Part shown: positions 10,492 to 30,691 of the stretch, piece by piece
Position numbering within the stretch: position 1 is the stretch's first letter
How the letters are laid out: each line of letters opens with the position of its first letter
From: an uncultured Eubacteriales bacterium
GTDB taxonomy: Bacteria > Bacillota > Clostridia > Oscillospirales > Acutalibacteraceae
Direction: 5' to 3'
Length of the DNA: 33,442 nt
Assembly: GCA_934630995.1 (NCBI GenBank)
Contig: CAKTXU010000001.1
Location: 1 to 33,442 of the forward strand
Translations under genes and position numbers: made by a program
The notes under the pieces: model-generated
Database searches by the model: none
What the model saw: only the letters and a program-made list of their open reading frames with translations
What the model was told of the DNA's origin: nothing

Positions 10492-11685
10492 ATGAAATTG
10501 AGAGCGTTTGAGAAAAGACTATATCTGTCCTCACCGACGATGCATGGGGATGAACTTATCTATATGACAGAGGCGTATAAGACAAACTGGATGTCCACGA
10601 TAGGGGCGAATATTGATGAGGTGGAACGGTTTGTTGGTGAGAAGTTGGGAGGCCAATATGCCCTCGCGCTCTCCTGTGGCACTGCTGCTTTGCACCTTGC
10701 GGTGAAACTCGCAGGAGTAAAGCCGGGGGACTACGTTTTTTGTTCTGATATGACCTTCGCGGCCACGGTAAATCCTGTCGTTTATGAGGGCGGCATACCT
10801 ATTTTTATCGATACTGAACGAGATACGTGGAATATGGATCCGGTGGCGTTGAAGAAAGCGTTTGTCCTCTATCCCCACGCAAAAGTCGTTATTGCAGCCA
10901 ACCTGTATGGAACACCCGCTAAACTCGACGTGATAAAAGCTGTTTGCGACGAATTCGGCGCCGTCTTGATTGAGGACGCCGCCGAATCTCTAGGAGCCAT
11001 CTTCAAAGGGAAACAAACCGGTACTTTCGGCAAGTACAACGCCATTTCCTTTAATGGAAACAAAATCATCACCGGCTCTGCCGGCGGTATGCTTTTGACC
11101 GATGATAGAGAGGCGGCCGACCATGCCCGCAAAATTTCAACGCAAGCAAGAGACGCCGCCCCTTGGTATCAACACAGTGAAATCGGCCATAATTACCGCA
11201 TGTCAAACGTGACCGCGGGAGTTGTAAGAGGACAGTTGCCCCATCTGGAAGAGCATATTGCGCAGAAGAAAGCGATTTATGAAAGATACAGGGAGGGCTT
11301 CAGGAATCTTCCGGTTATCATGAATCCCTTCGATGCCGAAAACGCCGAGCCGAATTACTGGCTGTCTTGTCTACTTATCGGCAAAGAAGCCATGTGTGAG
11401 CAGCGCAGAACGCATTGCCAGGCAAGCTATGAACCGGAACAAGGGAAATCCTGTCCTGCGGAAATTCTCGAAGCACTGGATAAGCAGAATGCGGAGGGCC
11501 GCCCTATTTGGAAGCCCATGCATATGCAGCCAGTTTATAAAGATAACATTTTCATCCCTGCAAATACCGGCGATGATGTCGGCGCGGATATTTTCAATCG
11601 CGGTCTGTGTCTGCCGAGCGATATCAAAATGACGCCTGAAGAGCAGGATATCGTCATGGAGGTCGTCAAATCCTGCTTTGAGTAA
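10492..11685 (+). CDS. DegT/DnrJ/EryC1/StrS family PLP-dependent sugar aminotransferase (PglE/EpsN-like)
   Basis: YLSSPTMHGDE..., ALSCGTAALHLA, IEDAAESLGA, SFNGNKIITGSAGGMLL (PLP lysine) and HNYRMSNV are present. AGAGGT RBS. Confidence 0.93.
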   Translation: MKLRAFEKRLYLSSPTMHGDELIYMTEAYKTNWMSTIGANIDEVERFVGEKLGGQYALALSCGTAALHLAVKLAGVKPGDYVFCSDMTFAATVNPVVYEGGIPIFIDTERDTWNMDPVALKKAFVLYPHAKVVIAANLYGTPAKLDVIKAVCDEFGAVLIEDAAESLGAIFKGKQTGTFGKYNAISFNGNKIITGSAGGMLLTDDREAADHARKISTQARDAAPWYQHSEIGHNYRMSNVTAGVVRGQLPHLEEHIAQKKAIYERYREGFRNLPVIMNPFDAENAEPNYWLSCLLIGKEAMCEQRRTHCQASYEPEQGKSCPAEILEALDKQNAEGRPIWKPMHMQPVYKDNIFIPANTGDDVGADIFNRGLCLPSDIKMTPEEQDIVMEVVKSCFE

Positions 11686-11705: not shown

Positions 11706-12350
11706 ATGTACGCAAAATTTTTTAAAAGATTTATCGATTTTTGGCTGTCGTTGACGGCACTCATCGTGCTGTTGCCGCTGCTGTTATTTCTGATAATAGC
11801 CGGAGCAATCGCCATGCGCGGCAACCCGTTCTTTGTGCAGCCAAGACCGGGTAAGAAGGGAAAAGACGGCCGGGAAAAGATATTTTGTCTGATCAAATTC
11901 CGCACCATGAGCAATAAGAGGCGTCCGGATGGAGGTCTCCTGCCGGATGAGCAAAGGCTTACATCATACGGCAGAATGCTGCGGAACACATCGCTCGACG
12001 AGCTTCCCGAACTGTGGAACATCCTAAGGGGAGATATGGCTTTGGTCGGTCCCAGGCCGCTGTTGGTCCAATATTTGCCCTTGTATTCGGAAGAACAGCG
12101 CCGCCGCCACGATATCCGCCCCGGCCTCACCGGCTATGCACAGGTGCATGGACGCAATACGCTTTCCTGGGATGAGAGATTCCGACTGGATGTCGCCTAT
12201 ATAGAGAAAATCTCTTTACGCGGTGATATGAGAATTCTTTTTGATACGATCAGAATCGTGCTGAAACGAGAGGGTATCTCTTCCGATGTTTCGGCGACGA
12301 TGGAAGTATTTCAGGGAGCACCTGTGAACAGTGAGGAAATCCACGTATGA
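11706..12350 (+). CDS. Small initiating phosphoglycosyl transferase ('bacterial sugar transferase', PglC/EpsL-like)
   Basis: FKRFIDFWLSLTALIVLLPLLL..., FVQPRPGKKGK.F.LIKFRTM, LDELPELWNILRGDMALVGPRPLL and KPGLTGYAQV-type motifs. GGAG RBS. Confidence 0.93.
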   Translation: MYAKFFKRFIDFWLSLTALIVLLPLLLFLIIAGAIAMRGNPFFVQPRPGKKGKDGREKIFCLIKFRTMSNKRRPDGGLLPDEQRLTSYGRMLRNTSLDELPELWNILRGDMALVGPRPLLVQYLPLYSEEQRRRHDIRPGLTGYAQVHGRNTLSWDERFRLDVAYIEKISLRGDMRILFDTIRIVLKREGISSDVSATMEVFQGAPVNSEEIHV

Positions 12351-12943
12351 ATAGGCGGCGGTTGATCATTATAGGCGCCGGCGGCCATGGCAGGGTCATG
12401 GAAGATGTCGCAGGATTGTCAGGTTACACCGATATAGCCTTCCTCGACGATAAACTACCCGTGCTCGGAAAGGTAAAGGATTTTGTCCGCTATGTGACTG
12501 CTTCAGACTTTTTTGTGGCGATTGGGGACAATGCCGTTCGTGAACGAATTTTCACGGAGTTATCCGAACATCATGCAACGATAGTGAAGTTGCTTCATCC
12601 CAAAGCTGTGATTGCGGATGGTGTCACCATAGGCGCCGGCACGGCAGTCATGGCGGGTGCCGTCATCAATCCCGGAGTCCGAGTAGGCGACGGGGTGATT
12701 GTCAATACCTGCAGCTCCATCGATCATGACTGCACCATCGAGGCGTTCACCCACATCTCCGTCGGAGCGCATCTTGCAGGGACTGTTCATACAGGCAGGC
12801 GTACTTTCGTGGGAATGGGTGCCAACATCATCCATCAAGTGACCATATGCGCTGATTGCGTGATAGGAGCTGGAACAGCCGTGGTGAAGGATATCGATGA
12901 ACGCGGCACATATGTCGGAGTGCCCGCCAAACGGATAGATTAG
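12347..12943 (+). CDS. NeuD/PglD/EpsM-type sugar N-acetyltransferase (left-handed beta-helix)
   Basis: ATGA overlap with the upstream gene. RLIIIGAGGHGRVMEDVA, AIGDNAVRERI, SSIDHDCTIEAFTHISVGAHLAG and the terminal YVGVPAKRID closely resemble PglD-type enzymes, including the catalytic His context. Confidence 0.9.
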   Translation: MNRRRLIIIGAGGHGRVMEDVAGLSGYTDIAFLDDKLPVLGKVKDFVRYVTASDFFVAIGDNAVRERIFTELSEHHATIVKLLHPKAVIADGVTIGAGTAVMAGAVINPGVRVGDGVIVNTCSSIDHDCTIEAFTHISVGAHLAGTVHTGRRTFVGMGANIIHQVTICADCVIGAGTAVVKDIDERGTYVGVPAKRID

Positions 12944-12987
12944 GAATATAAGCCGCCTCATACTCGTTCCATACATAGGAGGACGTT

Positions 12988-14265
12988 TTGAAAATTGCCA
13001 TCATTGCGCAATATCTGGGAGATATTGCGCATCCCGAAACCTTCAACAGCCGGTTTCTGACCCTGGCGGACATGCTTACCGCACGGCAGCACAGCGTGGA
13101 AATTATCACAAGCGATTTTATTCACAGCATAAAACGGCATGTTTTCGATGTATCCACCTATAAAGAGTGTAAACTGACAACGCTGCATGAGCCCGGCTAT
13201 GCAAAAAATATTTGTATGAAACGGTTTTTTAGCCATTATATCCTTTCCAGAAATCTGCGAAAGCGGCTGAAGCAAACGGAAAAGCCGGATGTCATCTATT
13301 GCGCCGTCCCCTCCCTGGATTTTGCATTCGAAGCGGCAAAATTCGCACGGAAACATCGCATTCCTTTAATTATCGATATACAGGATTTATGGCCGGAAGC
13401 CTTTGAGATGGTGGCTAAAATTCCCGTGGCCGGAAAAATGATGTTTTATCCCTTCCGGCGGCGGGCCAATGCCGTATACGCGGCGGCGGACGAAATCATA
13501 GCGGTTTCTGAGACATATGCACGGCGGGCTTTGCAGGTGAATAAAAAATGTGAAAAAGCGGGTGTCGTGTTTCTGGGAACAGAATTATCGAAGTTTGACC
13601 GATTTAAAACCACGGTATCTCCTATTCATAAACCCGCGGAAGAAATCTGGCTGGGCTATGCCGGGACACTCGGGCACAGCTATGATTTAAAGACGGTTTT
13701 TAACTGTCTTAGCCGGTTAAAGGACAAACCTTTTTACAAACGGCTGAAACTGGTCGTTATCGGTGACGGACCTCTGCGGCGGGAGTTAGAGGACTACGCG
13801 AACGTACTCGCGTTAAATGTCCTGTTTACGGGAATGCTGCCTTACGAACAGATGGTGTCCGTGCTCTGCAGGTGTGATGTGGCGGTCAATCCTATCAAAA
13901 AGAATTCTGCTGCTTCTATTATCAACAAACACGCTGATTACGCCGGCGCAGGGCTCCCGGTATTGAACAGCCAGGAAAATGTCGAGTACAGAAACCTGAT
14001 TGACGAGTATGATATGGGGTTGAGCTGCACATGTGAATGTGCCAAAGATATGGCTGAAAAGCTGACGGTCCTTATCAGCAGCCGTGAAATGAGATTGCGA
14101 ATGGGCGTGCGGGCAAGAAAATGCGCGGAAGAGAAGTTCGACAGAAAAAACACCTACAGCTTGATTGTCGAAACAATTGAAAAATTTAACCAAGAGGGAA
14201 AGAGACGTATTGGCAACGATAAAAGAACATCAGCAGGTTTTGCTGGAGCTCTTAACGGAGTTTGA
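12988..14265 (+). CDS. Glycosyltransferase, GT4 (GT-B, group 1)
   Basis: TTG start 4 nt after AGGAGGA. MKIAIIAQYLG..., GTLGHSYDL, VIGDGPLR... and the NPIKKNSAASIINKHADYAGAGLPVL (E/N-x7-E-like) region. The last ~33 codons overlap the next gene. Confidence 0.85.
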   Translation: MKIAIIAQYLGDIAHPETFNSRFLTLADMLTARQHSVEIITSDFIHSIKRHVFDVSTYKECKLTTLHEPGYAKNICMKRFFSHYILSRNLRKRLKQTEKPDVIYCAVPSLDFAFEAAKFARKHRIPLIIDIQDLWPEAFEMVAKIPVAGKMMFYPFRRRANAVYAAADEIIAVSETYARRALQVNKKCEKAGVVFLGTELSKFDRFKTTVSPIHKPAEEIWLGYAGTLGHSYDLKTVFNCLSRLKDKPFYKRLKLVVIGDGPLRRELEDYANVLALNVLFTGMLPYEQMVSVLCRCDVAVNPIKKNSAASIINKHADYAGAGLPVLNSQENVEYRNLIDEYDMGLSCTCECAKDMAEKLTVLISSREMRLRMGVRARKCAEEKFDRKNTYSLIVETIEKFNQEGKRRIGNDKRTSAGFAGALNGV

Positions 14266-15058
14266 CAGAGTCTGTAAAAAGCACGACATTCCCTATATGC
14301 TGTTTGCCGGAAGCGCTTTGGGTGCCGTTAGGCATCAGGGCTTTATTCCATGGGATGACGATTTGGATATCGTTATGCTGCGGCCTGCTTACAATCGCTT
14401 TCTTGCGGTGGCGTCGGATGAGTTATCTGCGAACAAGTATTTTGTTCAGGCGGAGTTCTCTTCCCATTGGCCGATGTACTTTTCAAAATTACGAAAAAAC
14501 CATACCGCCTGTCTTGAAAAGTATCATCCGAAGGACAGTGAGACACATCAGGGAATATATATCGACATCTTTCCCTGCGACAATGCGTCCGAATGCGCAT
14601 TTATCAGGAGGCTGCAATATTATTGCTCCCGGATTGTCATTGCGAAATCCATGCTGAAGCGCGGGTATGATACAAACAGTCATTTCAAAAAGCTGGCGGT
14701 ATCCGTATCCCGGTTTTTTCCTATGAACCCTTTTTACAACATAGTGGTAAGGCGCACAAAGAAGGATTCCGAGCTGGTGCATACGTTTTTCGGCGGTACC
14801 TCCCGATACCAAAAAGGCGTGTATCCGAGGGCCTGGTTTGAGGATGTGAAGGAAACCCGCTTTGAGAACTTAACGGTTCCCATTTCCGCCCATTATGACC
14901 TGTTATTGCGCACCTTGTATGGAGACTATATGACCATTCCGCCGGAGGAAGATCGAACGGTCCATGCCATTCTGGTGGATACGGAGCGTTCCTATACGGC
15001 ATACGCGCATTACCGCGACGATATGGAATTTGAAGTGTATACGAGAAGCATACGTTAA
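14165..15058 (+). CDS. licD: LicD family phosphotransferase (cholinephosphotransferase / polyol-phosphate transferase family)
   Basis: LLELLTEFDRVCKKHDIPYMLFAGSALGAVRHQGFIPWDDDLDIVM, IDIFPCD and LYGDYMTIPPEE are the LicD signature. The start is uncertain: TTG at 14165 or TTG at 14210, with no upstream ATG. Confidence 0.88.
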   Translation: MSKQLKNLTKRERDVLATIKEHQQVLLELLTEFDRVCKKHDIPYMLFAGSALGAVRHQGFIPWDDDLDIVMLRPAYNRFLAVASDELSANKYFVQAEFSSHWPMYFSKLRKNHTACLEKYHPKDSETHQGIYIDIFPCDNASECAFIRRLQYYCSRIVIAKSMLKRGYDTNSHFKKLAVSVSRFFPMNPFYNIVVRRTKKDSELVHTFFGGTSRYQKGVYPRAWFEDVKETRFENLTVPISAHYDLLLRTLYGDYMTIPPEEDRTVHAILVDTERSYTAYAHYRDDMEFEVYTRSIR

Positions 15059-15111
15059 CAAGGAAGTAATGCCGAAAGGCTTACTATAATACGCTTAAAG
15101 GAGAGGAACCC

Positions 15112-18100
15112 ATGAAACACAGCAAAGCATACCGCGCGCTATCCATCGTTTTGTGTCTGCTCATGCTGCTTAGTGCGATGCCGCTTGCGGTATTTGCAAC
15201 GGGTGCAGAAACATCCCTGACCATTGCCTCGACCAAGACCTCAGCTCTGGCGCCGGGCGTACAGGAGCAGGAGATAGTGGCATATGATGCGCAGGGCAAA
15301 CGCATCGTCTACTATGCAATTTCGGCAGATATCGCGACAAACAGCGACGTCCTTGTCAAGGCCAACTACCATGACAACGACAATACAGGCGTTTGGGGCA
15401 AGGCGACCGTTATGGAGCAGGCGTCGGCCGCAAAAGAAAAACGCGGGTACAATGTCGTCGCGTCCACTAACGCCTCCTATTACAATGTATCAACAGGCCA
15501 GCCCACCGGCGCTTTCGTCATGGAAGGCGTCAATATCAACGGCAACAGTATGGGGAACAGCTATGAGTTCTTCGCCGTCATGAAAGACGGCACCGCTATG
15601 ATTGGGAAAAGAGGGACGTTCAGTCAGTATGCGGACAATGTCCAGGAAGCGGTCGGCGGTTACCGTATGCTGGTCTGGGACGGTCAGATAGTTTCCGGAC
15701 TTGATACGACGAACAAATATCCCCGCTCGACTGTCGGCATCAAGGCGGACGGCAATGTGGTGCTGATGGTGGCTGACGGCAACCAGAGCCCTTACTCCGT
15801 CGGCCTCAACTATCAGGAGCAGGCGGAAATCATGCTGAGCCTGGGCTGCGTCGCGGCCATTGAGCTCGACGGCGGCGGATCCGCCACCTATGCGGCAAAG
15901 CTGGAGGGTACGGATGAGGTTGTCGTCAGAAACAGCTGTTGTGACGGCACCGTGCGTTCCGTTTCCAATACGATTATGGTCATTTCCACGGCTGCTGCGG
16001 ACGGGACATTTGACCATGCCAACCTCAGCACGGAATATGCGTTCCATGCGCCGCACTCCCAGGTAAGGATTGCCGCCACAGGTGCGGACAAGGGCGGACA
16101 CAGCGCTGAAATCCCCCCCGATGTGACCTGGACGCTGTCCAACGACTCCTACGGAACCATCGCCGACGGGGTTTTCAGCTCCAACGGAAAAACCGGTACG
16201 GTTACGGCGCAAATGCTGCACGGGGGCAAGGTGGTCGGTGAGCTGGATATCACCCTTGTCAATCCCACCTCCATCGCCTTCTCCTCCTCCGCCAAGACCG
16301 TTCCCTACGGTAAGTCCTCGGACATGACCATAACGGCCATGTACAATGGCGCGGAGGTGTATGCGACGGCCGACGCCTACGCCTTTACCCTGTCCGACAC
16401 GGCGGCGGGAAACATGAACGGCTTTACCTTTACCGCTGCCGAAGACGAGTCGATTGGCGGCGCGACCCTGACGGCCGCCTACCGGTACGCCGACGCCCTG
16501 GACCCGATAGCGGTTACTATCACCTTCGGCAAGGGCTCCGATATTCTGTTCGACTTTGAGAACGCGGACATCTCCGACTGGACCGATTATTACGGCATGG
16601 TGAACTCCGGGTACACCGGCGGATATACCAACATCTATTCGACCACTGAGTCTGGAAACTACTCGTCCAATGTAAATATGGATACCTTTCTGGCTACCAG
16701 GGAAAACGGCGGCCAGGTCAAAAACGGCCAATATTCCTTGGGCGTTACGATGGATTATCTGCAGAGTACGGAGCACGGAGAATGGCAGTACGCCTATCTG
16801 TACTATCTGGGCGATTTGCTGACCTACCGCGATGTGAAGAACGGCGTAAACGGCACCCGCCTCGGCATGTGGATGTACATACCGCAGGAGGCGGTCGGCA
16901 GTTGCGCCAGGCTCGCCTATACCTATGAGACTGCCGACGGAAAGCTCAACACCGCTTACCTCTATTTCACCTACCAGTATGTCGACAAGGGCTTTTCCAA
17001 ACTAACCTCAGAAAACATCCCCGAGGCCGGATGGGCTTATGTCTACTGCGATTTGGACGCCATATCCAAGACTTATGTGACCAGCAGCGTCTATGGGGCG
17101 CGGCAGGACGGCGCCAGGACAGATTATGCCCCGGCCTTCATCCAGTTCATCGTCTCCTCTTCCGCCTACGGAGCGGAAAGATGCACCTTCTATATCGACG
17201 ACATCACTCTGGATTACAGTGACGTTGTCGACGACCGGGACGCACCGCTTGTGAGCAACCCGCTGGTGTTGGACGACCTTAACAGCTATGCGCTGGACGG
17301 CCGTACCATCGGCTTCAACACTATCAGCGTAACAGCGGATGTCGCGGAAGATATGTCCCATGGAGACAACTTCACGGGACTAAATCCGACAACCGCGCAG
17401 ATTTATGTAGACGGTCAGGCTGTCACGACGAATTACGCCGCGGGCAAAATTTCCGCGGCCGGCATCGTTCTTCCCGACGGCACGCATGATATTGCCTTTG
17501 AGATCGCCGATAACCAGGGCAATTATACAAGAGTTACAAGGCAGATCGTCATTGCCGCCGGCAGCAGCTATCCCGTCGTCTCCCTTGAGGGTCAGGCTCT
17601 TGAGGCAGGATTACTGAAAACAGGCGCGCAGTATAACCTTCTCCTCAAGACGTCGGATGTATCCAAAATACAGAGCATCACCACCACCATCTGGCTGAAC
17701 AGCTCCTCCACCTGGGAGCTGGAGCACATGACCGTGCTGAACGGTTTCACCTCAACCTATACCGTCGATAGGAATGCTTGCACCGCGACCATCACTCTGA
17801 CCAGAACCGGTAGCAGCGCCGCAACGGGCGAGGCAGTGTTAGCGACCATCCCCGTGCGCAACTGGTACTGGAACGGCAGTGCCGGCGTGGACGCGGCGAC
17901 ACAGTGGAATTCCAAAAACCATGCACCGCAAATCATCCTGAGCTATAAGGTCAAATCCGGTGCGGTGGCCTATATTGACGGATATACCGTCGACGCGAAC
18001 AATTACGTGGCCGGCTTCTCCAATACGAAAACAGATGTGGAAACCGAATTGAACAGCAGTATCGCCAACCTGAAAAACACCATTGGTACTTGGCATACCC

Positions 18101-20334
18101 ATACCGCGGCTGCGATTGCCGATAAGGCGGCGACCTGCACCGAGGTAGGCTATATCGGGCGCACGGTTTGCTCCGTGTGCAACTCGGTTGTCGACTGGGG
18201 CGAAACGCTTCCCGCCACAGGCCACAACTATATTGTCATCGACAACAAATTGACCTGTGCCAACTGTCATGAAGTCATGAACGGCGAGTACGAAGGCAAA
18301 ATTTACATCGACGGCGTTATTGCCGAGGGCTGGGTCAACGGCAATACCTATTATGCCGACGGCGTCATGGTAACCGGCGCCTATGTCATCGGCGGCGTTG
18401 CCTATGTATTCGATGATAACGGTATTTATCAGCCCGACGCGCTTTTCTCCGGATTCATCGATACACCCCGGGGACGGATGTATTTTCTCTCCAACGACAG
18501 CTATATCACAGGATACAGCTATATCTCCAACACCCCGTACTATTTCGATGGGAAAGGGCTTGCCTATGACGGTGAATATGTCATAGGCGGAGAAACCTGC
18601 CTTTTCGAAAAGGGCGTATTCGTCAGCGCAGCATCCTCCGACGTCGTTCTCGCAGGCTGGGCGGGGGTTGAGGCCCATTTTGTCCTTTATGCAAACGGCA
18701 CCTTGAAATTCAGCGGCAGCGGCGATATGTACTACCATCAGTCCAACGCGACCATTCCCTGGGCCAAGCTGAGAGAGTCCATCACCCGGGTGGAAATCGG
18801 TAAGGACATCACCTCCATCGCTAGATTTGCGTTGGCTCATGCGTATTATGTCGAGGAAATTGTATTTGAAGAGGGCAGTAAACTGGAAACCATCGGTTAT
18901 CAGTCTTTCCACTATTTAAACCGAATCAAAGAATTGATTCTGCCCGATTACGTCAAGACGATTGAGTGGTGTGCTTTCGGCTACTGGACAAGCCTCAAGA
19001 GTATTTATTTGCCGGATAGCTTGGAAAGCATAAATGAAAAAGCTTTTGAAAAACATAACGCTGACCTGGTATTACAGGTTGCCGAAGGTACATATGCCGC
19101 GCAGTTCGCTGAAAAATATGGATTTAAAGTTCAGCTCCGTGAAAAAGTACCACAGGTAGTGGCTCAGGGCGCCTGCGGACAGACCGCCGTCTGGACGCTG
19201 TACGATAACGGAACGCTTGAAATTTCTGGCATGGGCGCGATTGCCGACTACGGCTATTCCAAATACGGCGCGAATGCGGCACCCTGGGCGTTGTACAGAG
19301 AAGAAATCAAGACGGTTGTGATAGGCAAGGACATCACGGTCATCGGTGAGTTCAGCTTCTATCAGTGCACGGCCCTCGCCTCTCTCATATTTGAAGAGGG
19401 CAGCAAGCTCGAGGTCATCGGCAAGGGCGCGGTCGGCTATTGCAGCAGTCTCGAAACGGTGACGCTTCCCGCGTCCTTGAGGGAAATTGCGGACAATGCG
19501 TTCTACTTCTCCGGCCTCAGGACGGTGGCGTTTGAGGAGAACAGCGTCCTTGCGATAATCGGCTCCTATGCGTTCAGAGACAACACGTCCTTAGTCAGCC
19601 TCTTTATTCCCGAAACCGTTGAGGAACTCGGGTCCAGCATCCTGTACAACAGCAATGAGGCGACCGTTCAGGTGGCGGATGACACATACTCCTATGACTA
19701 TGCGGTAAAAAATCGTTTCAAGATGGAGGTCAGACCGCATTCTCCGCGGGTAAAAGCAAGCGGCGCCTGCGGACAGACCGCCGTCTGGACGCTGTACGAT
19801 AACGGAACGCTTGAGATTTCTGGCATGGGCGCGATTGCCGACTACGGCTATTCCAAATACGGCGCGAATGCGGCACCCTGGGCGTTGTACAGAGAAGAAA
19901 TCAAGACGGTTGTGATAGGCAAGGACATCACGGTCATCGGTGAGTTCAGCTTCTATCAGTGCACGGCCCTCGCCTCTCTCATATTTGAAGAGGGCAGCAA
20001 GCTCGAGGTCATCGGCAAGGGCGCGGTCGGCTATTGCAGCAGTCTCGAAACGGTGACGCTTCCCGCGTCCTTGAGGGAAATTGCGGACAATGCGTTCTAC
20101 TTCTCCGGCCTCAGGACGGTGGCGTTTGAGGAGAACAGCGTCCTTGCGATAATCGGCTCCTATGCGTTCAGAGACAACACATCCCTAGAAACCGTTTATA
20201 TCCCTGACGGCGTCACCCATATCGGCTCTGCTATTTTCTATGTATGCGGTGAAAATGTTACCGTATATGTTGCGAATAACTCCTTAGCGCATCAGTACGC
20301 GGTAAAAAACGGCATTCATGCGGTTGTTCGTTGA
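15112..20334 (+). CDS. 1,740-aa secreted multidomain surface protein: signal peptide, phosphodiester glycosidase (NAGPA-like) domain, Ig-like/CBM-like regions, Cys4 motif, wall-binding repeats, three BspA-type LRR modules
   Basis: AAAGGAGAGG RBS. Signal peptide MKHSKAYRALSIVLCLLMLLSAMPLAVFA|TGAE. The span of about nt 15300-15990 (NASYYN...GAFVMEG...YPRSTVGIKADGNVVLMVADG...AAIELDGGGSATY) matches the phosphodiester glycosidase family. GWVNGNTYYADG... repeats lie at about 18300-18620. LRR_5/BspA-like modules (GKDITSIG..AF..C..L..I) run from about 18640 to 20331. Confidence 0.92.
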   Translation: MKHSKAYRALSIVLCLLMLLSAMPLAVFATGAETSLTIASTKTSALAPGVQEQEIVAYDAQGKRIVYYAISADIATNSDVLVKANYHDNDNTGVWGKATVMEQASAAKEKRGYNVVASTNASYYNVSTGQPTGAFVMEGVNINGNSMGNSYEFFAVMKDGTAMIGKRGTFSQYADNVQEAVGGYRMLVWDGQIVSGLDTTNKYPRSTVGIKADGNVVLMVADGNQSPYSVGLNYQEQAEIMLSLGCVAAIELDGGGSATYAAKLEGTDEVVVRNSCCDGTVRSVSNTIMVISTAAADGTFDHANLSTEYAFHAPHSQVRIAATGADKGGHSAEIPPDVTWTLSNDSYGTIADGVFSSNGKTGTVTAQMLHGGKVVGELDITLVNPTSIAFSSSAKTVPYGKSSDMTITAMYNGAEVYATADAYAFTLSDTAAGNMNGFTFTAAEDESIGGATLTAAYRYADALDPIAVTITFGKGSDILFDFENADISDWTDYYGMVNSGYTGGYTNIYSTTESGNYSSNVNMDTFLATRENGGQVKNGQYSLGVTMDYLQSTEHGEWQYAYLYYLGDLLTYRDVKNGVNGTRLGMWMYIPQEAVGSCARLAYTYETADGKLNTAYLYFTYQYVDKGFSKLTSENIPEAGWAYVYCDLDAISKTYVTSSVYGARQDGARTDYAPAFIQFIVSSSAYGAERCTFYIDDITLDYSDVVDDRDAPLVSNPLVLDDLNSYALDGRTIGFNTISVTADVAEDMSHGDNFTGLNPTTAQIYVDGQAVTTNYAAGKISAAGIVLPDGTHDIAFEIADNQGNYTRVTRQIVIAAGSSYPVVSLEGQALEAGLLKTGAQYNLLLKTSDVSKIQSITTTIWLNSSSTWELEHMTVLNGFTSTYTVDRNACTATITLTRTGSSAATGEAVLATIPVRNWYWNGSAGVDAATQWNSKNHAPQIILSYKVKSGAVAYIDGYTVDANNYVAGFSNTKTDVETELNSSIANLKNTIGTWHTHTAAAIADKAATCTEVGYIGRTVCSVCNSVVDWGETLPATGHNYIVIDNKLTCANCHEVMNGEYEGKIYIDGVIAEGWVNGNTYYADGVMVTGAYVIGGVAYVFDDNGIYQPDALFSGFIDTPRGRMYFLSNDSYITGYSYISNTPYYFDGKGLAYDGEYVIGGETCLFEKGVFVSAASSDVVLAGWAGVEAHFVLYANGTLKFSGSGDMYYHQSNATIPWAKLRESITRVEIGKDITSIARFALAHAYYVEEIVFEEGSKLETIGYQSFHYLNRIKELILPDYVKTIEWCAFGYWTSLKSIYLPDSLESINEKAFEKHNADLVLQVAEGTYAAQFAEKYGFKVQLREKVPQVVAQGACGQTAVWTLYDNGTLEISGMGAIADYGYSKYGANAAPWALYREEIKTVVIGKDITVIGEFSFYQCTALASLIFEEGSKLEVIGKGAVGYCSSLETVTLPASLREIADNAFYFSGLRTVAFEENSVLAIIGSYAFRDNTSLVSLFIPETVEELGSSILYNSNEATVQVADDTYSYDYAVKNRFKMEVRPHSPRVKASGACGQTAVWTLYDNGTLEISGMGAIADYGYSKYGANAAPWALYREEIKTVVIGKDITVIGEFSFYQCTALASLIFEEGSKLEVIGKGAVGYCSSLETVTLPASLREIADNAFYFSGLRTVAFEENSVLAIIGSYAFRDNTSLETVYIPDGVTHIGSAIFYVCGENVTVYVANNSLAHQYAVKNGIHAVVR
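19168..19586 (+). repeat. Direct repeat copy 1 (419 bp) inside the surface-protein gene
   Basis: Base-by-base comparison with 19762..20180 (offset 594 nt, in frame) shows identity except A19221 versus G19815, which is synonymous (GAA/GAG). Confidence 0.95.
19762..20180 (+). repeat. Direct repeat copy 2 (419 bp) inside the surface-protein gene
   Basis: See copy 1. Identity collapses abruptly outside these bounds (first mismatches at 19167/19761 and 19587/20181). Confidence 0.95.
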
Positions 20335-20366: not shown

Positions 20367-20406
20367 TAATATGCGGCACAGCGGAGAAACGCTGTGTCGC
20401 ATATTA
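20367..20406 (+). terminator. 17-bp stem-loop after the surface-protein gene (terminator/attenuator candidate, no U-tract)
   Basis: taatatgcggcacagcg (20367-20383) pairs with cgctgtgtcgcatatta (20390-20406) with one G-U pair and a 6-nt loop. It is followed by cacatg rather than a T-run. Confidence 0.45.
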
Positions 20407-20439: not shown

Positions 20440-21219
20440 ATGAATATACAGACGTTGGTGGTGACCACCGACCAAAAGGATTATTCCCTGTTGAAAAAAA
20501 TGAATATACAGACGCCGGCCATTGTCGGTAACCAGTGTGACCGCGATGAAATCGAGGAATTTTCCTATGGCGGTAATCCCGTAAAATGGCTTTCTCTCCA
20601 TGAACGAGGCGTGGGGCTGAATAGAAATACCGTATTAATGCGCAGCGAGGCGGATGTGTGTGTGCTGGCGGATGACGACATGGTTTTCATCGACGGTTAT
20701 GAAAAAGTAGTCTCCGATTTGTTCGACCGGTATCCCCACACCGATGTCCTGATTTTCAATCTAAACCAAAAGAGCCCCACCATCTATAAAAACAGCAACG
20801 TAAAAAAAATCCACAGATTCAATTATGGCAAATACGGCGCAGCAAGACTTGCCTTCCGGCGCGAAAGCGTACAATTCAACAATATCTGTTTTCATCTCCT
20901 ATTCGGCGGGGGAGCGAAATACAGCAGCGGAGAAGACAGTATTTTTTTGTACGAATGTCTAAAAAGAAAGCTGCGAGTACTAGCTGTTCCGGTTGCTATC
21001 GCCGAATTGACCAGCGATAGGGAATCGACTTGGTTTCAAGGCTATACGGACGACTTCTTTTTTGATAAAGGTGTATTTTACTATGCGCTAGACAGAAACA
21101 TGGGGAGATTTATTGCACTGTACAATTGCTTTAAGCACCGAAACAGCCGCTATAAACAGTATGGCTGGAAAAAAGCTTATCGGCAGATGCTCCGCGGCAT
21201 ACACAGCGTGAAAAAATAG
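20440..21219 (+). CDS. Putative GT-A fold glycosyltransferase (DxD-type)
   Basis: AGGAG RBS 7 nt upstream. LVVTTDQKDYSLLKKMNIQTPAIVGNQCDR... and VLADDDMVFIDGY (DXD) resemble small EPS-locus GT-A transferases. Confidence 0.7.
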   Translation: MNIQTLVVTTDQKDYSLLKKMNIQTPAIVGNQCDRDEIEEFSYGGNPVKWLSLHERGVGLNRNTVLMRSEADVCVLADDDMVFIDGYEKVVSDLFDRYPHTDVLIFNLNQKSPTIYKNSNVKKIHRFNYGKYGAARLAFRRESVQFNNICFHLLFGGGAKYSSGEDSIFLYECLKRKLRVLAVPVAIAELTSDRESTWFQGYTDDFFFDKGVFYYALDRNMGRFIALYNCFKHRNSRYKQYGWKKAYRQMLRGIHSVKK

Positions 21220-21280
21220 CCGTTTCACCCTCCCCCTGCATTTCCCTTACAATCTCTAATACTAACAAGGAACGTAAACT

Positions 21281-22483
21281 ATGAGATACGCCATGCTGTC
21301 CACCCTGATTCCTCCGGAGATGGAAGAAGACTTCCTTAAAAATTCCAGCCATACCATGCAGGATGCCGCCAATGTGCTGCAATGGCATCTTTATGAAGGA
21401 TTCTGTTCAAATATCGGAGAAGATATCCCGCTGTTTAACGTCATGCCGGCGGGGAGCTTCCCACAATATTACAGGCGCCCGCTTATTTTCCAATCCAAAT
21501 TCGGTAAAAACGGCGTCAATATAGGCTTTTGTAATATAAAGCTCATCCGAAATGCCTGTAAGTCTAAGAGAATATACAGCGCTTTAAAGAAATGGTGCAA
21601 ATCGGTTGACGATATAAAAATTCTGTTTGTTTACACGATAGCCTCTCCCTTTCTCAAAGCGGTTACCAAGATAAAGCAGGACTTCCCAACGGTGAAGATT
21701 TGCGCGATTGTTGCCGACCTGCCGGACATGACCTGCCTGTCGGATAAAAAGAGCCTATTGCAGAGCCTTTTTTCAAAGCGCCAATCGGAAGAGGCCTACG
21801 GGCTTTTATCCTGTATTGACGCATTCGTTTTGCTGACAAAATATATGGCCGATTATATGCATATCGAGCAGCCCTATTGCGTCGTGGAGGGTATCGCCTC
21901 AGTTGCAGAAAGAGAGGTGCCCGTGAGGGAGATCTATAAAGAAGAAAAAATTGTGTTGTATGCGGGAACTTTACATAGAAAATTTGGTGTTTTGCATTTG
22001 TTGGAGGCATTTCGTCAGTTACGCGATGATAATTTCAGATTATGGATATGCGGGGTGGGAGACAGCGAATCCGCGATTAAAGCTGCGGCCGGTGAAGATA
22101 CCCGTATCGTCTTTATGGGGCAGCTTCCCCGCTCGGAAGTTCTGCAATTGCAGAAAAAAGCAACGTTGTTGGTGAACCCGAGACAAAATAACGAAGAATT
22201 TACCAAATACAGCTTTCCCTCAAAAAATATGGAATATCTGTCTTCCGGTAAACCGCTTATTGCCTATAAGCTCGACGGCATACCCGACGAATACGACCCT
22301 TATATATTTTATCCTGCGGATAATTCCGCGGCTTCCTTGGCAGAAAAAATTTTAGAGGTTGCTGCTATGCCCGAAGATATGCTGATACGACATTGTCGCA
22401 AGGCCTACGATTTTGTTTTATCGTCAAAGAATCACATAGTTCAAACAAAAAAGATATTAGAGCTGATAGGAAGAATCGTTTAA
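21281..22483 (+). CDS. Glycosyltransferase, GT-B (group 1 / GT4-like)
   Basis: The C-terminal half (VLYAGTLHRKFGV..., CGVGD, LVNPRQNNEEFTKYSFPSKNMEYLSSGKPLIAY) fits the GT1/GT4 nucleotide-sugar-binding domain. Confidence 0.8.
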   Translation: MRYAMLSTLIPPEMEEDFLKNSSHTMQDAANVLQWHLYEGFCSNIGEDIPLFNVMPAGSFPQYYRRPLIFQSKFGKNGVNIGFCNIKLIRNACKSKRIYSALKKWCKSVDDIKILFVYTIASPFLKAVTKIKQDFPTVKICAIVADLPDMTCLSDKKSLLQSLFSKRQSEEAYGLLSCIDAFVLLTKYMADYMHIEQPYCVVEGIASVAEREVPVREIYKEEKIVLYAGTLHRKFGVLHLLEAFRQLRDDNFRLWICGVGDSESAIKAAAGEDTRIVFMGQLPRSEVLQLQKKATLLVNPRQNNEEFTKYSFPSKNMEYLSSGKPLIAYKLDGIPDEYDPYIFYPADNSAASLAEKILEVAAMPEDMLIRHCRKAYDFVLSSKNHIVQTKKILELIGRIV

Positions 22484-22511
22484 CTACGCAGTGGAACTGA
22501 GGTGAGAAGAT

Positions 22512-25045: not shown

Positions 25046-25134
25046 ATCGCTATTTTGCATCATAGGAAATAATATCCTATAACGGGAATCATATTATGTG
25101 CAGCAAAAATCTATTGAGCAGAAAGATGAGTCGT

Positions 25135-27613: not shown

Positions 27614-27644
27614 AGATTACCAATTAAAAATAAGGAGAACGATT

Positions 27645-28964: not shown

Positions 28965-28966
28965 AT

Positions 28967-30019: not shown

Positions 30020-30022
30020 GCG

Positions 30023-30691
30023 TTGAAAAAGCATTTATTGGAATTTTTAGAAAAAAAGCCCTCCATATTTAGATTGTGTGTTTTCATTTATAATATTATT
30101 TTTTCTGGAAACTGGGGGCTATTCAAGAAAATCACTGCTCCATATGCCATTTTTAAGAAAATCAATTTAACCGTTAAAGGAACAGGAAATACAATTATTA
30201 TTGACAAATGGTCACAATTGAACCGCTGCAAGATTGTGATTTACGGAAATAATAATGTGATCCATATAGGTCAAAATTGTAAATTGACAGAAACCTGCTT
30301 TTGGATAGAAGATGATAACAATGAGATATCAATCGCCGATAAAACATATTTATGCGGAAAAACACAACTTGCATGCATTGAAGGAACCCGAATATCCATT
30401 GGAGAAGGTTGCCTCTTCTCAAGCGATATTTTGTTTAGAACCGGTGACAGCCATTCTATAGTAGACATGGATGGGGAGCGTATAAATACATCAATGAATA
30501 TTACAATCGGAAATCATGTCTGGATTGGTGTAAGAGCATTTATAGGAAAAGGTGTTTTAATTTCCGACAACTCGATTGTTGGTGCATGTTCTTGTGTAAC
30601 CAGAAAATTTGAACAGTGTAACGTTGTTATTGCAGGAAATCCCGCAAAAATTGTTAAAGAAAACATCGATTGGAAAAATGAACGGCTATGA
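30023..30691 (+). CDS. Hexapeptide-repeat (LbH) O-acetyltransferase, AT-rich cassette
   Basis: TTG start 3 nt after the capE stop, and the stop overlaps the capF ATG (ATGA at 30688-30691). ISIGEGCLFSSDILFRTGDSHSI...ITIGNHVWIGVRAFIGKGVLISDNSIVGACSCV...VIAGNPAKIV is a typical polysaccharide O-acetyltransferase. Confidence 0.85.
   Translation: MKKHLLEFLEKKPSIFRLCVFIYNIIFSGNWGLFKKITAPYAIFKKINLTVKGTGNTIIIDKWSQLNRCKIVIYGNNNVIHIGQNCKLTETCFWIEDDNNEISIADKTYLCGKTQLACIEGTRISIGEGCLFSSDILFRTGDSHSIVDMDGERINTSMNITIGNHVWIGVRAFIGKGVLISDNSIVGACSCVTRKFEQCNVVIAGNPAKIVKENIDWKNERL

Follow-up and report, generated by a model that had tools for sequence, protein, structure and literature searches.

What does a giant secreted protein with a phosphodiester-glycosidase (NAGPA) domain do inside a gene cluster for capsule synthesis, directly behind a LicD-family phosphotransferase gene? 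The question is raised by a gut Clostridia cluster of the Wzx/Wzy type, contained in a stretch of 33,442 nucleotides, referred to here as the window. A preliminary description of this DNA proposed that the two genes form a "write then uncover" module, in which LicD decorates the polymer with phosphodiesters that are trimmed outside the cell. Below, we argue for another reading, which we hold tentatively: the giant protein may work outside the cell as a hydrolase of a glycosyl-1-phosphate bond in the polymer of its own locus, most plausibly the bond at the reducing end, resulting in polymer release or turnover.

Organization of the locus

The genes of the cluster are listed below; those from position 20440 onward were assigned with Pfam.

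10492..11685, + strand: DegT/PglE-like sugar aminotransferase (PF01041, E 1.6e-81), opening the conserved 5' block
11706..12350, + strand: small PglC-type phosphoglycosyl transferase (PGT, Bac_transf; PF02397, E 9e-55), which makes Und-PP-sugar
12347..12943, + strand: PglD-like hexapeptide acetyltransferase (PglD_N E 7e-18, Hexapep E 8e-13)
12988..14265, + strand: GT4 glycosyltransferase, the first after the PGT (Glyco_trans_1_4, Glycos_transf_1 and Glyco_transf_4, E about 1e-12)
14165..15058, + strand: LicD-family phosphotransferase (PF04991), probable start TTG 14210
15059..15111, + strand: 53-nt spacer with a ribosome-binding site, AAAGGAGAGG, read from the sequence
15112..20334, + strand: giant, predicted secreted multidomain protein of 1,740 aa (5,223 nt), a single ORF with a NAGPA domain and three LRR_5 modules
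20440-21219, + strand: GT2-like gene, just under the cut-off
21281-22483, + strand: GT4
22512-23828, + strand: Wzy
23825-25045, + strand: GT4
25096-26313, + strand: GT4
26282-27613, + strand: Wzx
27486..33438, + strand: nucleotide-sugar genes, comprising the following six ORFs
within 27486..33438, + strand: UDP-sugar dehydrogenase
within 27486..33438, + strand: Polysacc_synt_2 gene with Polysacc_syn_2C, read as FnlA/CapE-like
within 27486..33438, + strand: hexapeptide acetyltransferase
within 27486..33438, + strand: Epimerase gene with Polysacc_synt_C, read as FnlB/CapF-like
within 27486..33438, + strand: VanZ-like ORF
within 27486..33438, + strand: UDP-GlcNAc 2-epimerase, read as FnlC/CapG-like

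The Fnl/Cap assignments are our reading of the domain combinations. The arrangement agrees with the preliminary description, which had placed a LicD gene 53 nt before a 5.2-kb gene (LicD stop at 15058, ATG at 15112) and glycosyltransferases on both sides within a Wzx/Wzy locus (GT4 upstream, GT2-like and GT4 downstream). The 5' gene order recurs in three related loci (L004, L168, and L170). A hairpin lies 3' of the giant gene (20372-20407), followed by a variable block of low GC content (20440..27613; GC 0.41-0.47, versus 0.51-0.57 in the giant gene). The Pfam search of the window found no LCP or CpsBCD genes upstream, no gene for synthesis of a CDP-alcohol donor, and no toxin or immunity partner.

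The LicD gene

The matches to PF04991, PF09992, and LRR_5 are far beyond chance, and the HMM check bore out both domain calls of the preliminary description. The LicD ORF matches the full PF04991 profile (E 3.2e-40, 139 bits; cut-off 22.6), and all 20 aligned homologues keep its W-D-D-D-x-D (PWDDDxD) motif. Counted from its first start codon (TTG 14165), the ORF shares sequence with the GT4 gene that precedes it. A start at TTG 14210 is likelier: a ribosome-binding site, GAGGGAAAG, lies before it, and the resulting length of 282 aa agrees with the approximately 283 aa of the best 120 LicD homologues.

The best-known reactions of the LicD family are transfers of phosphocholine or ribitol phosphate, and the resulting diesters lack an anomeric carbon on the side of the substituent, leaving nothing for a glycosidase to cut. 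Two LicD lineages with 59-61% identity to the window LicD adjoin a cassette of CTP_transf_like nucleotidyltransferase, pyrophosphatase-like, and His-phosphatase genes, a neighborhood that points to an unusual NDP-X as donor and away from the common NDP-sugars. Enzymes of the family can write sugar-1-phosphodiesters: the LicD-domain protein Mnn14 of yeast uses GDP-mannose in vitro to transfer Man-1-P (PMC9705852).

Architecture and predicted active site of the giant protein

The giant protein can be divided as follows.

15112..15198, + strand: signal peptide, aa 1-29, with a basic n-region, then a hydrophobic helix, and predicted cleavage after VFA
15220..15996, + strand: NAGPA/DUF2233 phosphodiester-glycosidase domain, aa 37-295 (PF09992)
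15862-15891, + strand: ELDGGGSATY loop of the NAGPA domain
15997..18093, + strand: middle region without domain assignment, aa 296-994 (about 700 aa)
18136..18267, + strand: Cys-rich CxxC...CxxC segment, aa 1009-1052 (Cys 1009, 1020, 1023, 1049, and 1052)
18295..18627, + strand: degenerate β-hairpin repeats of the cell-wall/choline-binding type, aa 1062-1172
18643..20331, + strand: three BspA-type LRR_5 modules (PF13306, E 1.9e-60, three stretches)

The preliminary description had named a signal peptide, and the N-terminus reads as a Sec-type leader, MKHSKAYR-ALSIVLCLLMLLSAMPLAVFA, with TG following the cleavage site. A signal-like N-terminus is kept in 14 aligned homologues, in which A29 is invariant, and AF2 places a helix at aa 4-22; we infer that the protein is secreted. 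No LPXTG or SLH motif was found in it, and it is probably wall-associated. The β-hairpin repeats match Choline_bind_3 (E 8e-4, 19.7 bits, under the cut-off of 27) and glucan_65_rpt (E 5e-4), and the giant homologues encoded in two other loci (L002 and L164) give comparable faint matches. The last two LRR_5 modules contain a tandem duplication with a 594-nt period and 142 identical residues. The Cys-rich segment is possibly a zinc ribbon, the Pfam hint being weak. For aa 296-994, Pfam gave hints below threshold only (Big_2, ChitinaseA_N, and DUF4397), a sequence search of the PDB at E 0.1 came back empty, and no catalytic family was detected. By eye, this region resembles Ig-like, CBM-like, and cohesin-like binding modules.

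The NAGPA domain matches PF09992 at aa 113-290 (E 3.5e-33, 115.6 bits; cut-off 25), and a profile built from 14 homologues finds 3ohg (E 1e-33) and 6pku (E 3e-20). The AF2 model of the domain (pLDDT 84.7) gives Foldseek TM-scores of 0.74/0.81 to 3OHG and 0.62/0.73 to 6PKU, a vertebrate NAGPA. Seven positions, N120, R205, D222, D253, G255, S257, and R282, do not vary among 76/76 homologous domains that average about 45% identity; the catalytic Asp and the Arg that binds phosphate are among them. This conservation, which the preliminary description had named as a check, argues that catalysis is retained, and the domain looks catalytically competent. The DGGGS loop, present here and critical for substrate recognition and catalysis (PMC13474241), is replaced by DGGNS or DGGAS in 10 of the 76. 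NAGPA enzymes cut the anomeric C1-O-P bond (PMC13474241); in the literature searched, we found no biochemical or genetic evidence for bacterial members of the family.

Distribution of NAGPA and LicD in related loci

At E ≤ 1e-30, the family comprises 1,366 clusters at 50% identity; among the 150 best-scoring ones, most proteins are 1,300-5,500 aa long. Their C-terminal architecture is highly variable (clusters c1, c6, and c35; 1,000-5,500 aa); one protein (L171) has NAGPA fused to a purple-acid-phosphatase-type metallophosphoesterase, a kind of fusion noted before (PMC11488536). We compared the 65 closest NAGPA-anchored loci, from Oscillospiraceae-type gut MAGs; 62 of the loci come from one-genome-per-species GTDB representatives and three from metagenome or MAG contigs. 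In nearly all of them, the giant gene is co-directional within a polysaccharide locus, often between polymerase and flippase, and the surrounding genes encode a small PGT, GT4/GT2, EpsG/Wzy, and Wzx, joined in some loci by CpsBCD and LCP. Among the NAGPA-anchored loci L001-L083, 28 have a homologous small PGT, and in many of the rest the contig ends before the upstream part of the locus.

The pairing of LicD with NAGPA, whose co-occurrence the preliminary description had proposed to measure, is real and recurs. LicD was found in 20/65 NAGPA-anchored loci versus 1/160 PGT-anchored controls, which were not taxon-matched (Fisher p 2e-11); when both sets are restricted to loci of 10 kb or more, again without taxon matching of the controls, the counts are 16/58 and 1/96 (p 5e-7). 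NAGPA occurred in 0/160 of these same, not taxon-matched, control loci. Within the LicD subfamily sharing 59-66% identity, a giant NAGPA gene lies downstream in 8/8 sampled homologues, usually adjacent, and in 13 loci with differing surroundings LicD is directly upstream of NAGPA. Stealth, a sugar-1-P transferase, occurs in 3/65 loci, all LicD-negative, and adjoins NAGPA in one (L049). Neither gene is present in about two thirds of the NAGPA loci. These include close relatives, with giant NAGPA proteins lacking LicD at 70-87% catalytic-domain identity; three of them (L001, L008, and L009), at 70-75% identity to the window protein, lack Stealth as well. Hence, NAGPA does not depend on LicD. Even at 84-87% identity of the NAGPA domains, LicD may be present in one locus and absent from another, and apparently complete loci, among them L011, L013, L022, L027, L031, L035, and L036, have no recognizable phosphotransferase besides the PGT. 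NAGPA-domain similarity does not co-vary with that of LicD (Spearman 0.01) or the PGT (Spearman 0.13) and is uncorrelated with Wzx similarity in the same locus. A crude count of wall-binding-like repeats showed no difference between LicD-positive and LicD-negative loci.

Possible roles of the giant protein

From these data, we infer as follows that the giant protein is catalytically active, which bond it cleaves, and what it does for the cell. The PglC-type PGT would create a sugar-1-phosphate bond at the reducing end of each chain, present in Und-PP-sugar before transfer and in sugar-1-P-6-MurNAc after transfer by LCP enzymes, which make phosphodiester bonds to peptidoglycan (PMC12220298). 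The NAGPA domain would cut the anomeric C1-O bond of such a linkage in the Wzx/Wzy polymer, and the remaining approximately 1,450 residues (middle region, wall-binding-like repeats, and BspA LRRs) would place the enzyme on the cell surface or the polymer. Bound polymer may thereby become free, so that capsule is released or turned over, or the ends of chains may be trimmed; the step that frees Gram-positive capsule as EPS has been described as unknown (PMC12220298). We favor the reducing-end bond because it is the only sugar-1-phosphate common to all related loci, which makes release or turnover the most likely role; the metallophosphoesterase fusion fits action on phosphoester-containing surface polymers. 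Cytoplasmic LicD, third in the conserved order of PGT, first glycosyltransferase, and LicD, would be an optional module that decorates the lipid-linked repeat unit with a phospho-substituent, its product possibly being an extra substrate or a binding site for the giant protein. Several observations count against this reading. If the domain reads the sugar at the reducing end, NAGPA might be expected to co-vary with the PGT, which it does not; with a leader that looks cleavable, the enzyme would not be membrane-tethered beside Und-PP chains; the window lacks upstream LCP/CpsBCD genes; and the 8/8 subfamily members and 13 directly upstream LicD genes hint at a functional tie to which this reading gives second place.

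That tie is one argument for the "write then uncover" module, in which LicD would put sugar-1-phosphate from an NDP-sugar on the repeat unit and NAGPA would decap it after export, so that the capsule is left with a phosphomonoester. For the chemistry to fit, the window LicD would have to transfer sugar-1-phosphate, as Mnn14 does; the missing CDP-alcohol gene and the Stealth genes of LicD-negative loci are in line with this, and the enrichment of LicD is strong, albeit against controls that were not taxon-matched. The loci without LicD or Stealth, the lack of LicD-NAGPA co-variation, the nucleotidyltransferase cassette, and the non-anomeric diesters of the best-known LicD products speak against it, and the 8/8 count could simply mean that NAGPA belongs to the core genes of such loci. 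We consider the module unlikely as a general account, though next in rank to hydrolysis at the reducing end; it may hold only as a special case. Ranked after it, and improbable, is a BspA-type surface adhesin or capsule organizer, whose NAGPA domain would be a lectin-like sugar-phosphate binder and whose position would reflect co-expression with the polymer. More than 80% of the protein is unassigned binding-module-like sequence, wall-binding-like repeats, or LRR_5, and the variable C-termini and the altered DGGGS loops agree with such a role; seven invariant positions at this level of divergence would be unusual for a pure binding module, the metallophosphoesterase fusion points to catalysis, and repeat counts do not differ with LicD. 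The least probable reading is that NAGPA attacks foreign or host phosphodiester-linked glycans (competitors' teichoic-acid-like polymers, yeast phosphomannan, or host GlcNAc-P-Man glycans) for nutrition or antagonism, its position being incidental. Fusions of NAGPA to TelC-type toxin domains, within large and diversifying surface proteins of Bacillota, have been read as systems of inter-organismal conflict (bioRxiv 10.1101/2025.01.14.632903), and both the rapidly changing binding modules and the lack of correlation with PGT, Wzx, or LicD would fit; however, co-directional placement among biosynthetic genes in nearly all closest loci is hard to call incidental, and the window shows no toxin/immunity partner.

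Comparison with known systems

The module had been presented as a bacterial analogue of mannose-6-phosphate tagging, a parallel that is not supported as drawn: the writer of the mammalian pathway belongs to the Stealth family, not to LicD, and it is the Stealth genes of LicD-negative loci that are its true homologues. The accompanying remark that operons of this kind seldom include extracellular enzymes was overstated, as the alginate operon encodes post-polymerization enzymes including AlgL, AlgG, and AlgX (PMC4432689). On the side of the hydrolase, profile alignment equates D253 and R282 with human NAGPA D286 and R316. The vertebrate E226/T227 loop, which recognizes the N-acetyl group, lies in an insertion without bacterial counterpart, so that sugar specificity cannot be read across, a further point against the reducing-end reading. 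The proposed sugar-1-P-6-MurNAc linkage would be a close chemical analogue of GlcNAc-1-P-6-Man, the natural substrate of NAGPA.

Organization of the polysaccharide locus

The LicD gene and the giant gene directly downstream of it lie in a polysaccharide locus that keeps a single strand direction and spans approximately 8.9 kb to 33.4 kb of the window. As expected for a Wzx/Wzy-dependent locus, Pfam annotation placed on one strand a phosphoglycosyl transferase (PGT; Bac_transf, E = 9e-55), five or six glycosyltransferase genes, Wzy (Wzy_C, E = 5e-9), and Wzx (Polysacc_synt, E = 2e-26).

Features of the polysaccharide locus (window coordinates, strand, and assignment)
10492-11685, +, DegT/PglE-like aminotransferase, locus start
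11706-12350, +, small PglC-type phosphoglycosyl transferase (Bac_transf)
12347-12943, +, PglD-like acetyltransferase
12988-14265, +, GT4 glycosyltransferase
14165/14210-15058, +, LicD (PF04991)
15112-20334, +, giant gene of 5,223 nt (NAGPA and LRR_5)
20440-27613, +, low-GC block comprising a GT2-like gene, GT4, Wzy, GT4, GT4, and Wzx
Locus end, +, nucleotide-sugar genes: UDP-sugar dehydrogenase and FnlA/B/C-like genes (Pfam)

The terminal genes are read as FnlA/B/C-like from their combinations of Pfam domains. The GC content is 0.51–0.57 in the giant gene, 0.41–0.47 in the Wzy/Wzx block (20400-28900), and 0.54–0.59 in the flanking genes. The contrast between the giant gene and the Wzy/Wzx block marks the locus as a mosaic, with the structure that is typical of serotype-variable regions. 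A GC content of 0.42 was also found at 30023-30691, in the region of a gene for a hexapeptide acetyltransferase that is inserted between the fnlA-like and fnlB-like genes, and a VanZ-like ORF (31785-32378, +; PF04892, E = 5e-12) lies between the FnlB-like and FnlC-like genes, overlapping both.

At the other end, the product of a 496-aa ORF (8925-10415, +) has at its N terminus a phage-integrase SAM-like domain (PF13102), which continues in frame into a PglD_N and Hexapep acetyltransferase, the latter probably starting near 9912 (MNLLILGAG). The integrase-like remnant marks the 5′ edge of the locus and hints at its acquisition or rearrangement. A search for alternative loci at the same chromosomal site, made via the AP-endonuclease-family protein that flanks the locus in the window, yielded nothing beyond a contig of 2.9 kb. 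A perfect hairpin with a 16-bp stem (AATATGCGGCACAGCG...CGCTGTGTCGCATATT) occupies 20372-20407, in the gap that separates the giant gene from the glycosyltransferase gene after it; the hairpin lacks a T-run, and the terminator scan did not call it. The promoter/terminator scan of the window yielded no excess over shuffled expectation.

The LicD protein and its subfamily

The preliminary description had placed a LicD gene next to a giant phosphodiester-glycosidase gene, and this pairing was borne out, both PF04991 and PF09992 scoring above their cut-offs. The LicD protein matches PF04991 over the entire profile (positions 1-227 of 227; 139 bits, cut-off 22.6; E = 3.2e-40), and residues P47, W48, D49, D50, D51, and D53 of its PWDDDxD motif, which includes the acidic signature of the nucleotidyltransferase-fold active site, are invariant among 20 aligned homologues. 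Translation probably starts at the TTG at 14210, yielding 282 aa, because a ribosome-binding site (GAGGGAAAG) stands in front of this codon and the best 120 homologues are approximately 283 aa long. The giant gene follows after a spacer of 53 nt that contains a strong ribosome-binding site.

The window LicD belongs to a populous subfamily (6,627 matches at E ≤ 1e-20); the best 120 of these matches are 57–98% identical to it, all but one within 57–66%. The sole LicD match in NCBIfam is the Mf1 cholinephosphotransferase model, whose score of 96 is far below the cut-off of 225. Sequence searches detected no relative of the protein in the PDB, and Pfam annotation of the window revealed no gene for synthesis of a LicD donor.

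Domain architecture and active site of the giant protein

The giant protein starts with a predicted, typical Sec leader (residues 1–29), and a signal-like N terminus is kept in homologues. The NAGPA/DUF2233 domain that follows is matched by Pfam at residues 113–290 (E = 3.5e-33; 115.6 bits, cut-off 25) and extends over residues ~37–295 in structural and profile alignments. Approximately 700 residues after this domain have no domain assignment and appear, by eye, β-rich and similar to binding modules. Within the middle 887 residues, searches revealed no PDB sequence match, only subthreshold Pfam hints, and no hidden second catalytic domain. The protein further contains a Cys-rich segment, degenerate repeats of the cell-wall/choline-binding type (Choline_bind_3, 19.7 bits with a cut-off of 27, E = 8e-4 for the subsequence; glucan_65_rpt, E = 5e-4), and three BspA-type LRR_5 modules (202.8 bits, cut-off 27.7; E = 1.9e-60). 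NF047961 (adhesin_HupY) matches partially (E = 1e-25), far below its cut-off, and neither an LPXTG nor an SLH anchor is present. The last two LRR modules share a tandem duplication (residues 1353–1494 and 1551–1692; window 19165-20164) with a period of 594 nt, whose copies have ~370 nt at 100% identity and 142 residues in common; this reflects either a very recent event or collapse/expansion during assembly.

A structural study has shown that the DGGGS loop of NAGPA is invariant from bacteria to human, that D286 of the human enzyme is catalytic, and that R316 binds phosphate (PMC13474241). The giant protein has ELDGGGSAT at residues 251–259, and profile alignment to Protein Data Bank entries 3OHG and 6PKU equates D253 with human D286 and R282 with human R316. 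Nine residues (N120, R205, G209, D222, G223, D253, G255, S257, and R282) are invariant in 76/76 homologous domains; G256 is replaced by N or A in 10 of the 76. An AlphaFold2 model of residues 1–313 (pLDDT 84.7) was compared by Foldseek with 3OHG (E = 1e-22; TM-scores of 0.74/0.81) and with the vertebrate NAGPA 6PKU (TM-scores of 0.62/0.73). By sequence, fold, and active site, the domain is thus a bona fide member of PF09992. Loss of active-site residues, which would have spoken against the interpretation in the preliminary description, was checked for and is not the case: D253, R282, and the DGGGS loop are all present. The human residues E226 and T227, which recognize the N-acetyl group, belong to a vertebrate insertion for which the profile alignment has no bacterial positions. 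Their lack of a bacterial counterpart concerns sugar specificity and not family membership.

NAGPA genes in polysaccharide loci of other genomes

A 14-sequence alignment of the N-terminal region was used to scan one genome per GTDB species. The scan confirmed at least 546 loci, and 80 of these were retained; three further NAGPA loci were added from a protein collection. Loci were annotated by our own ORF calling, family assignment with jackhmmer, and clustering, and Pfam was run on cluster representatives. The family is large, with at least 1,366 clusters (50% identity, E ≤ 1e-30); among the best 150, lengths of 1,300–5,500 aa predominate. Among the matches listed, the proteins most similar to the giant protein are encoded in metagenome-assembled genomes from the gut that are labeled Ruminococcus sp., Faecousia sp., and Oscillospiraceae. 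Of the 65 closest loci among the matches listed, nearly all encode a giant NAGPA protein (1,000–3,000 aa), whose gene is codirectional with its neighbors and belongs to a polysaccharide locus that also has a small PGT, GT4/GT2 glycosyltransferases, EpsG or Wzy, and Wzx. The NAGPA gene is usually preceded by LicD, by a conserved GT4, or by a polymerase gene (for EpsG, Wzy_C, or a membrane protein resembling Wzy). Wzx frequently comes after it, and in some loci CpsB/C/D and LCP genes are found upstream.

Several NAGPA loci contain additional features. In L171, one of the contigs with a homologue of the window LicD, the giant gene (10990-17547) lies directly 3′ of the LicD gene and encodes a 2,185-aa protein that combines NAGPA with a purple-acid-phosphatase-type metallophosphoesterase (Pur_ac_phosph_N and Metallophos) and LRR_5. 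Fusions of NAGPA with metallophosphoesterase-type domains have been noted previously (PMC11488536), and the fusion in L171 fits action on phosphoester-bearing surface polymers. Directly after its giant gene, NAGPA locus L009 encodes a CotH-kinase-domain protein of 1,286 aa (14273-18133). A second family of proteins (cluster c13), ~1,230 aa long and weakly matched by Flg_new_2/InlB B-repeat, often adjoins NAGPA (L043, L046, L050, L051, L032, L037, L058, and L061; for example, L046 3918-7616), and in several such loci it sits between LicD and NAGPA. In several NAGPA loci without LicD (L001, L008, L009, L011, L024, L036, and L049), the PGT gene adjoins a pair of genes for an HpcH/HpaI-like aldolase and a D-2-hydroxyacid dehydrogenase (clusters c25 and c18), which may make an acidic nonsugar substituent.

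Association of NAGPA with LicD and Stealth genes

Among the 65 closest NAGPA loci listed, 20 contain LicD (20/65), three contain Stealth (3/65), and approximately two thirds contain neither. The mammalian GlcNAc-1-phosphotransferase is a member of the Stealth family. Pfam detected no Stealth domain among the ORFs of the window, and the family is absent from the 240 control or distant-LicD loci (0/240). The three Stealth genes, all in LicD-negative NAGPA loci, are located as follows.

Stealth genes in LicD-negative NAGPA loci (locus coordinates)
L007, 17864-18853
L034, 7127-8134
L049, 14652-15638, directly downstream of the NAGPA gene

In a number of apparently complete loci (for example, L011, L013, L022, L027, L031, L035, and L036), the PGT is the only recognizable phosphotransferase. 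Unannotated ORFs of LicD-negative loci, inspected for hidden phosphotransferases, encode acyltransferases, ATP-grasp ligases, Wzy, a PGA_cap protein, a β-lactamase-fold protein, an aldo-keto reductase, a CotH kinase, and, in L030, one NTP_transf_5 protein. Closely related catalytic domains occur in loci of different content: those of L042 (LicD) and L049 (Stealth) are 87% identical, those of L057 (LicD) and L036 (neither) are 84% identical, and the window clade (LicD) is ~70–75% identical to L001 and L008 (neither) and to L007 (Stealth). One whole clade of 13 NAGPA loci has neither LicD nor Stealth. From the NAGPA side, the link to LicD is loose.

From the LicD side, the link to NAGPA is tight. 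A giant NAGPA gene lies downstream of LicD in all of the LicD-subfamily contigs examined (8/8) and is directly adjacent in five of them, with PGT, first glycosyltransferase, LicD, and NAGPA as the recurrent order. In two nonadjacent lineages of the subfamily, NAGPA comes after a three-gene nucleotide-activation cassette or after GT4-GT4-Wzy-Wzx. That all eight have NAGPA could follow simply from its being a core gene of such loci. Near distant LicD genes (27–47% identity; 80 IMG/VR loci), NAGPA was not found (0/80). Many of these 80 loci (L256-L335) are phage-like contigs whose LicD is 27–35% identical, often lies near one contig end, and recurs in near-identical copies across samples.

Loci anchored on a PglC-type PGT, taken from metagenomes (L084-L163) and from IMG/VR (L176-L255), served as controls. 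They are of the polysaccharide type, with recurring PglD, PglE, GT4, and Wzx homologues, and contain LicD in 1/160 and NAGPA in 0/160 cases; drawn from mixed environments and not taxon-matched, they provide a crude background. Relative to these non-taxon-matched controls, LicD is enriched in NAGPA loci (Fisher p = 2e-11 with all loci included and 5e-7 when only those of 10 kb or more are compared), which may partly reflect lineage. The co-occurrence expected from the preliminary description was hence found in part: LicD is enriched (20/65 versus 1/160) and its subfamily is accompanied by NAGPA in all eight contigs examined, but approximately two thirds of the NAGPA loci lack a writer.

Pairwise-identity covariation of NAGPA with the PGT, Wzx, and LicD of the same locus gave Spearman coefficients of 0.13, 0.09, and 0.01, respectively, and no partner stands out. 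These low values indicate that the loci are heavily reshuffled; the adjacency of LicD and NAGPA nevertheless persists. We also considered whether wall-binding repeats track LicD, as they might if the protein were anchored to phosphocholine, and dropped this idea because the repeat counts showed no clear difference (median 3 versus 1). The regular-expression count is crude, and the LicD-negative set includes approximately ten short proteins from outside capsule loci with almost no repeats.

Chemistry and proposed role

The well-known reactions of LicD-family enzymes are the transfer of phosphocholine or ribitol phosphate, which creates diesters without an anomeric carbon on the substituent side. 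For this reason, a glycosidase could not “uncover” them. NAGPA cuts the anomeric C–O bond of GlcNAc-alpha-1-P-6-Man (PMC13474241), and the chemistry predicted for the bacterial domain is cleavage of the C1–O bond of a sugar-1-phosphodiester. Such bonds are within the reach of the LicD family, since the yeast LicD-domain protein Mnn14 transfers Man-1-P from GDP-mannose, after which an uncapping enzyme exposes Man-6-P (PMC9705852). In two lineages of the LicD subfamily (L167 and L172/L173), the cassette that accompanies LicD and NAGPA encodes a DHH/family-II-pyrophosphatase-like protein, a CTP_transf_like nucleotidyltransferase (NMNAT/cytidylyltransferase type), and a histidine phosphatase; from these domains, it probably makes an unusual NDP-activated donor.

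Nucleotide-activation cassettes by LicD and NAGPA (locus coordinates)
L167, 15903-18248
L172, 10881-13188
L173, 2107-4414

The Mnn14 case makes the originally suggested sequence of “write then uncover” chemically possible, but it is not the general role of NAGPA, most loci being without a writer. For the window pair itself, it remains unlikely that LicD adds a phosphodiester group that the extracellular NAGPA domain then uncovers, even with the tight link seen from the LicD side. A bolder version covers all loci with a writer, be it LicD as here or Stealth as in L007, L034, and L049: a capped sugar-1-phosphate would be added in the cytoplasm and uncapped by NAGPA to leave phosphomonoesters on the capsule, and Stealth plus NAGPA would be the prokaryotic counterpart, and possibly the evolutionary source, of the eukaryotic mannose-6-phosphate (M6P) machinery. 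We find this version doubtful. The LRR modules and the wall-binding-like repeats bring to mind an adhesin or anchor in which the NAGPA module is lectin-like; set beside the intact active site, this reading seems rather improbable. Lastly, the protein could be an outward-acting enzyme directed against glycans of other organisms or of the host, following the conflict interpretation of TelC-NAGPA proteins (bioRxiv 10.1101/2025.01.14.632903); with the gene built into polysaccharide loci, we consider this very unlikely.

Our proposal instead starts from the giant protein as an exported, catalytically intact glycosyl-phosphate hydrolase that is kept in capsule loci with or without a phosphodiester writer. 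Its most economical target would be the single sugar-1-phosphate bond expected from every one of these loci, the reducing-end linkage created by the PGT, either in the lipid-linked Und-PP-sugar or, after transfer by LCP enzymes, in sugar-1-P-6-MurNAc. The latter is a close analogue of the GlcNAc-1-P-6-Man cleaved by NAGPA. In this view, LicD would act in the cytoplasm as an optional addition, its product possibly serving the giant protein as one more substrate or as a binding site. We tentatively favor such a role in release, turnover, or trimming of the polymer, as a possibility that falls short of being probable, because LCP enzymes form phosphodiester bonds of this kind and the mechanism by which Gram-positive capsule is released as free exopolysaccharide has been described as unknown (PMC12220298). 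A related, bolder reading would make the NAGPA domain the missing enzyme that detaches Gram-positive capsule from its glycosyl-phosphate anchor. The weak points of the release reading are that NAGPA does not covary with the PGT, that the leader looks cleavable and not like a membrane tether, and that the adjacency of LicD is left unaccounted for.

Giant NAGPA-domain proteins form a large uncharacterized family that, in gut Clostridia, is built into capsule/exopolysaccharide loci; the literature searched contained no functional study or demonstrated substrate of any bacterial PF09992/DUF2233/COG4632 member. An exported enzyme that is encoded in the capsule locus and specific for glycosyl-phosphate bonds would be a testable candidate for capsule release or for phosphodiester remodeling after export. 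If either role is true, the surface charge, immune recognition, and phage/host interactions of abundant gut commensals would be affected. The colocation of Stealth and NAGPA homologues, both halves of the eukaryotic M6P system, in a few bacterial loci is of evolutionary interest.

Comparison with known systems

The catalytic fold is shared with vertebrate NAGPA and with the Bacteroides ovatus DUF2233 protein BACOVA_00430 (3OHG) (TM-scores of 0.62–0.81), as are the DGGGS loop, the catalytic Asp, and the phosphate-binding Arg. The giant protein differs in that it has no N-acetyl-recognition loop, EGF stalk, or membrane anchor; its domain is fused to ~1,450 residues (unassigned regions, wall-binding-like repeats, and LRR) and is encoded in a bacterial polysaccharide locus. 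With M6P tagging, in which a Stealth GlcNAc-1-phosphotransferase acts before NAGPA, the window shares genes for a phosphodiester-forming transferase and a NAGPA-type glycosidase in one locus, and L007, L034, and L049 encode a true homologue of Stealth as the transferase. The target, however, would be a polysaccharide and not an N-glycan. Since the writer in the window is LicD and not Stealth, and co-occurrence is not obligatory, the window locus is not a member of an M6P-type system so defined.

In the pneumococcal system of LicD1/LicD2 and Pce (CbpE), a LicD-installed phosphodiester is trimmed extracellularly by a secreted modular enzyme that is held at the wall by choline-binding repeats. 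To our knowledge, the pneumococcal licD and pce genes are not adjacent. Pce removes approximately 20% of the phosphocholine residues from teichoic acids (PMC4929436). The giant protein also has degenerate choline-binding-type repeats, which score below the Pfam cut-off; Pce is a metallo-β-lactamase-fold phosphodiesterase, whereas the domain described here is a predicted glycosidase.

Polymer-processing enzymes encoded in biosynthetic loci include PslG, BcsZ, and PelA, as well as CapD of the poly-gamma-glutamate capsule. The alginate operon likewise encodes AlgL, AlgG, and AlgX (PMC4432689), so an extracellular enzyme in such an operon is not unusual in itself, contrary to what had been assumed. 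Common to the AlgL/AlgG/AlgX type and the window is a gene for an exported enzyme, acting on nascent or finished polymer, among genes for cytoplasmic and membrane biosynthetic proteins. Here, the catalytic family is a different one, the presumed target is a glycosyl phosphate and not a glycosidic or amide bond of the backbone, the locus is a Gram-positive one of the Wzx/Wzy type, and the protein is far larger, with adhesin-type modules. Its three LRR_5 modules are shared with BspA-type LRR proteins, including the HupY/LrrG adhesin, but the described BspA/HupY adhesins have neither an N-terminal enzyme domain nor a capsule-locus context.

The nearest functional precedents are pneumococcal LicD with Pce and the polymer-processing enzymes within exopolysaccharide operons. 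A locus-encoded extracellular polysaccharide-processing enzyme is of an already known kind; new here are the catalytic family to which the enzyme belongs, how large the protein is and how it is built, and the fact that gut Clostridia systematically have it in their capsule loci.
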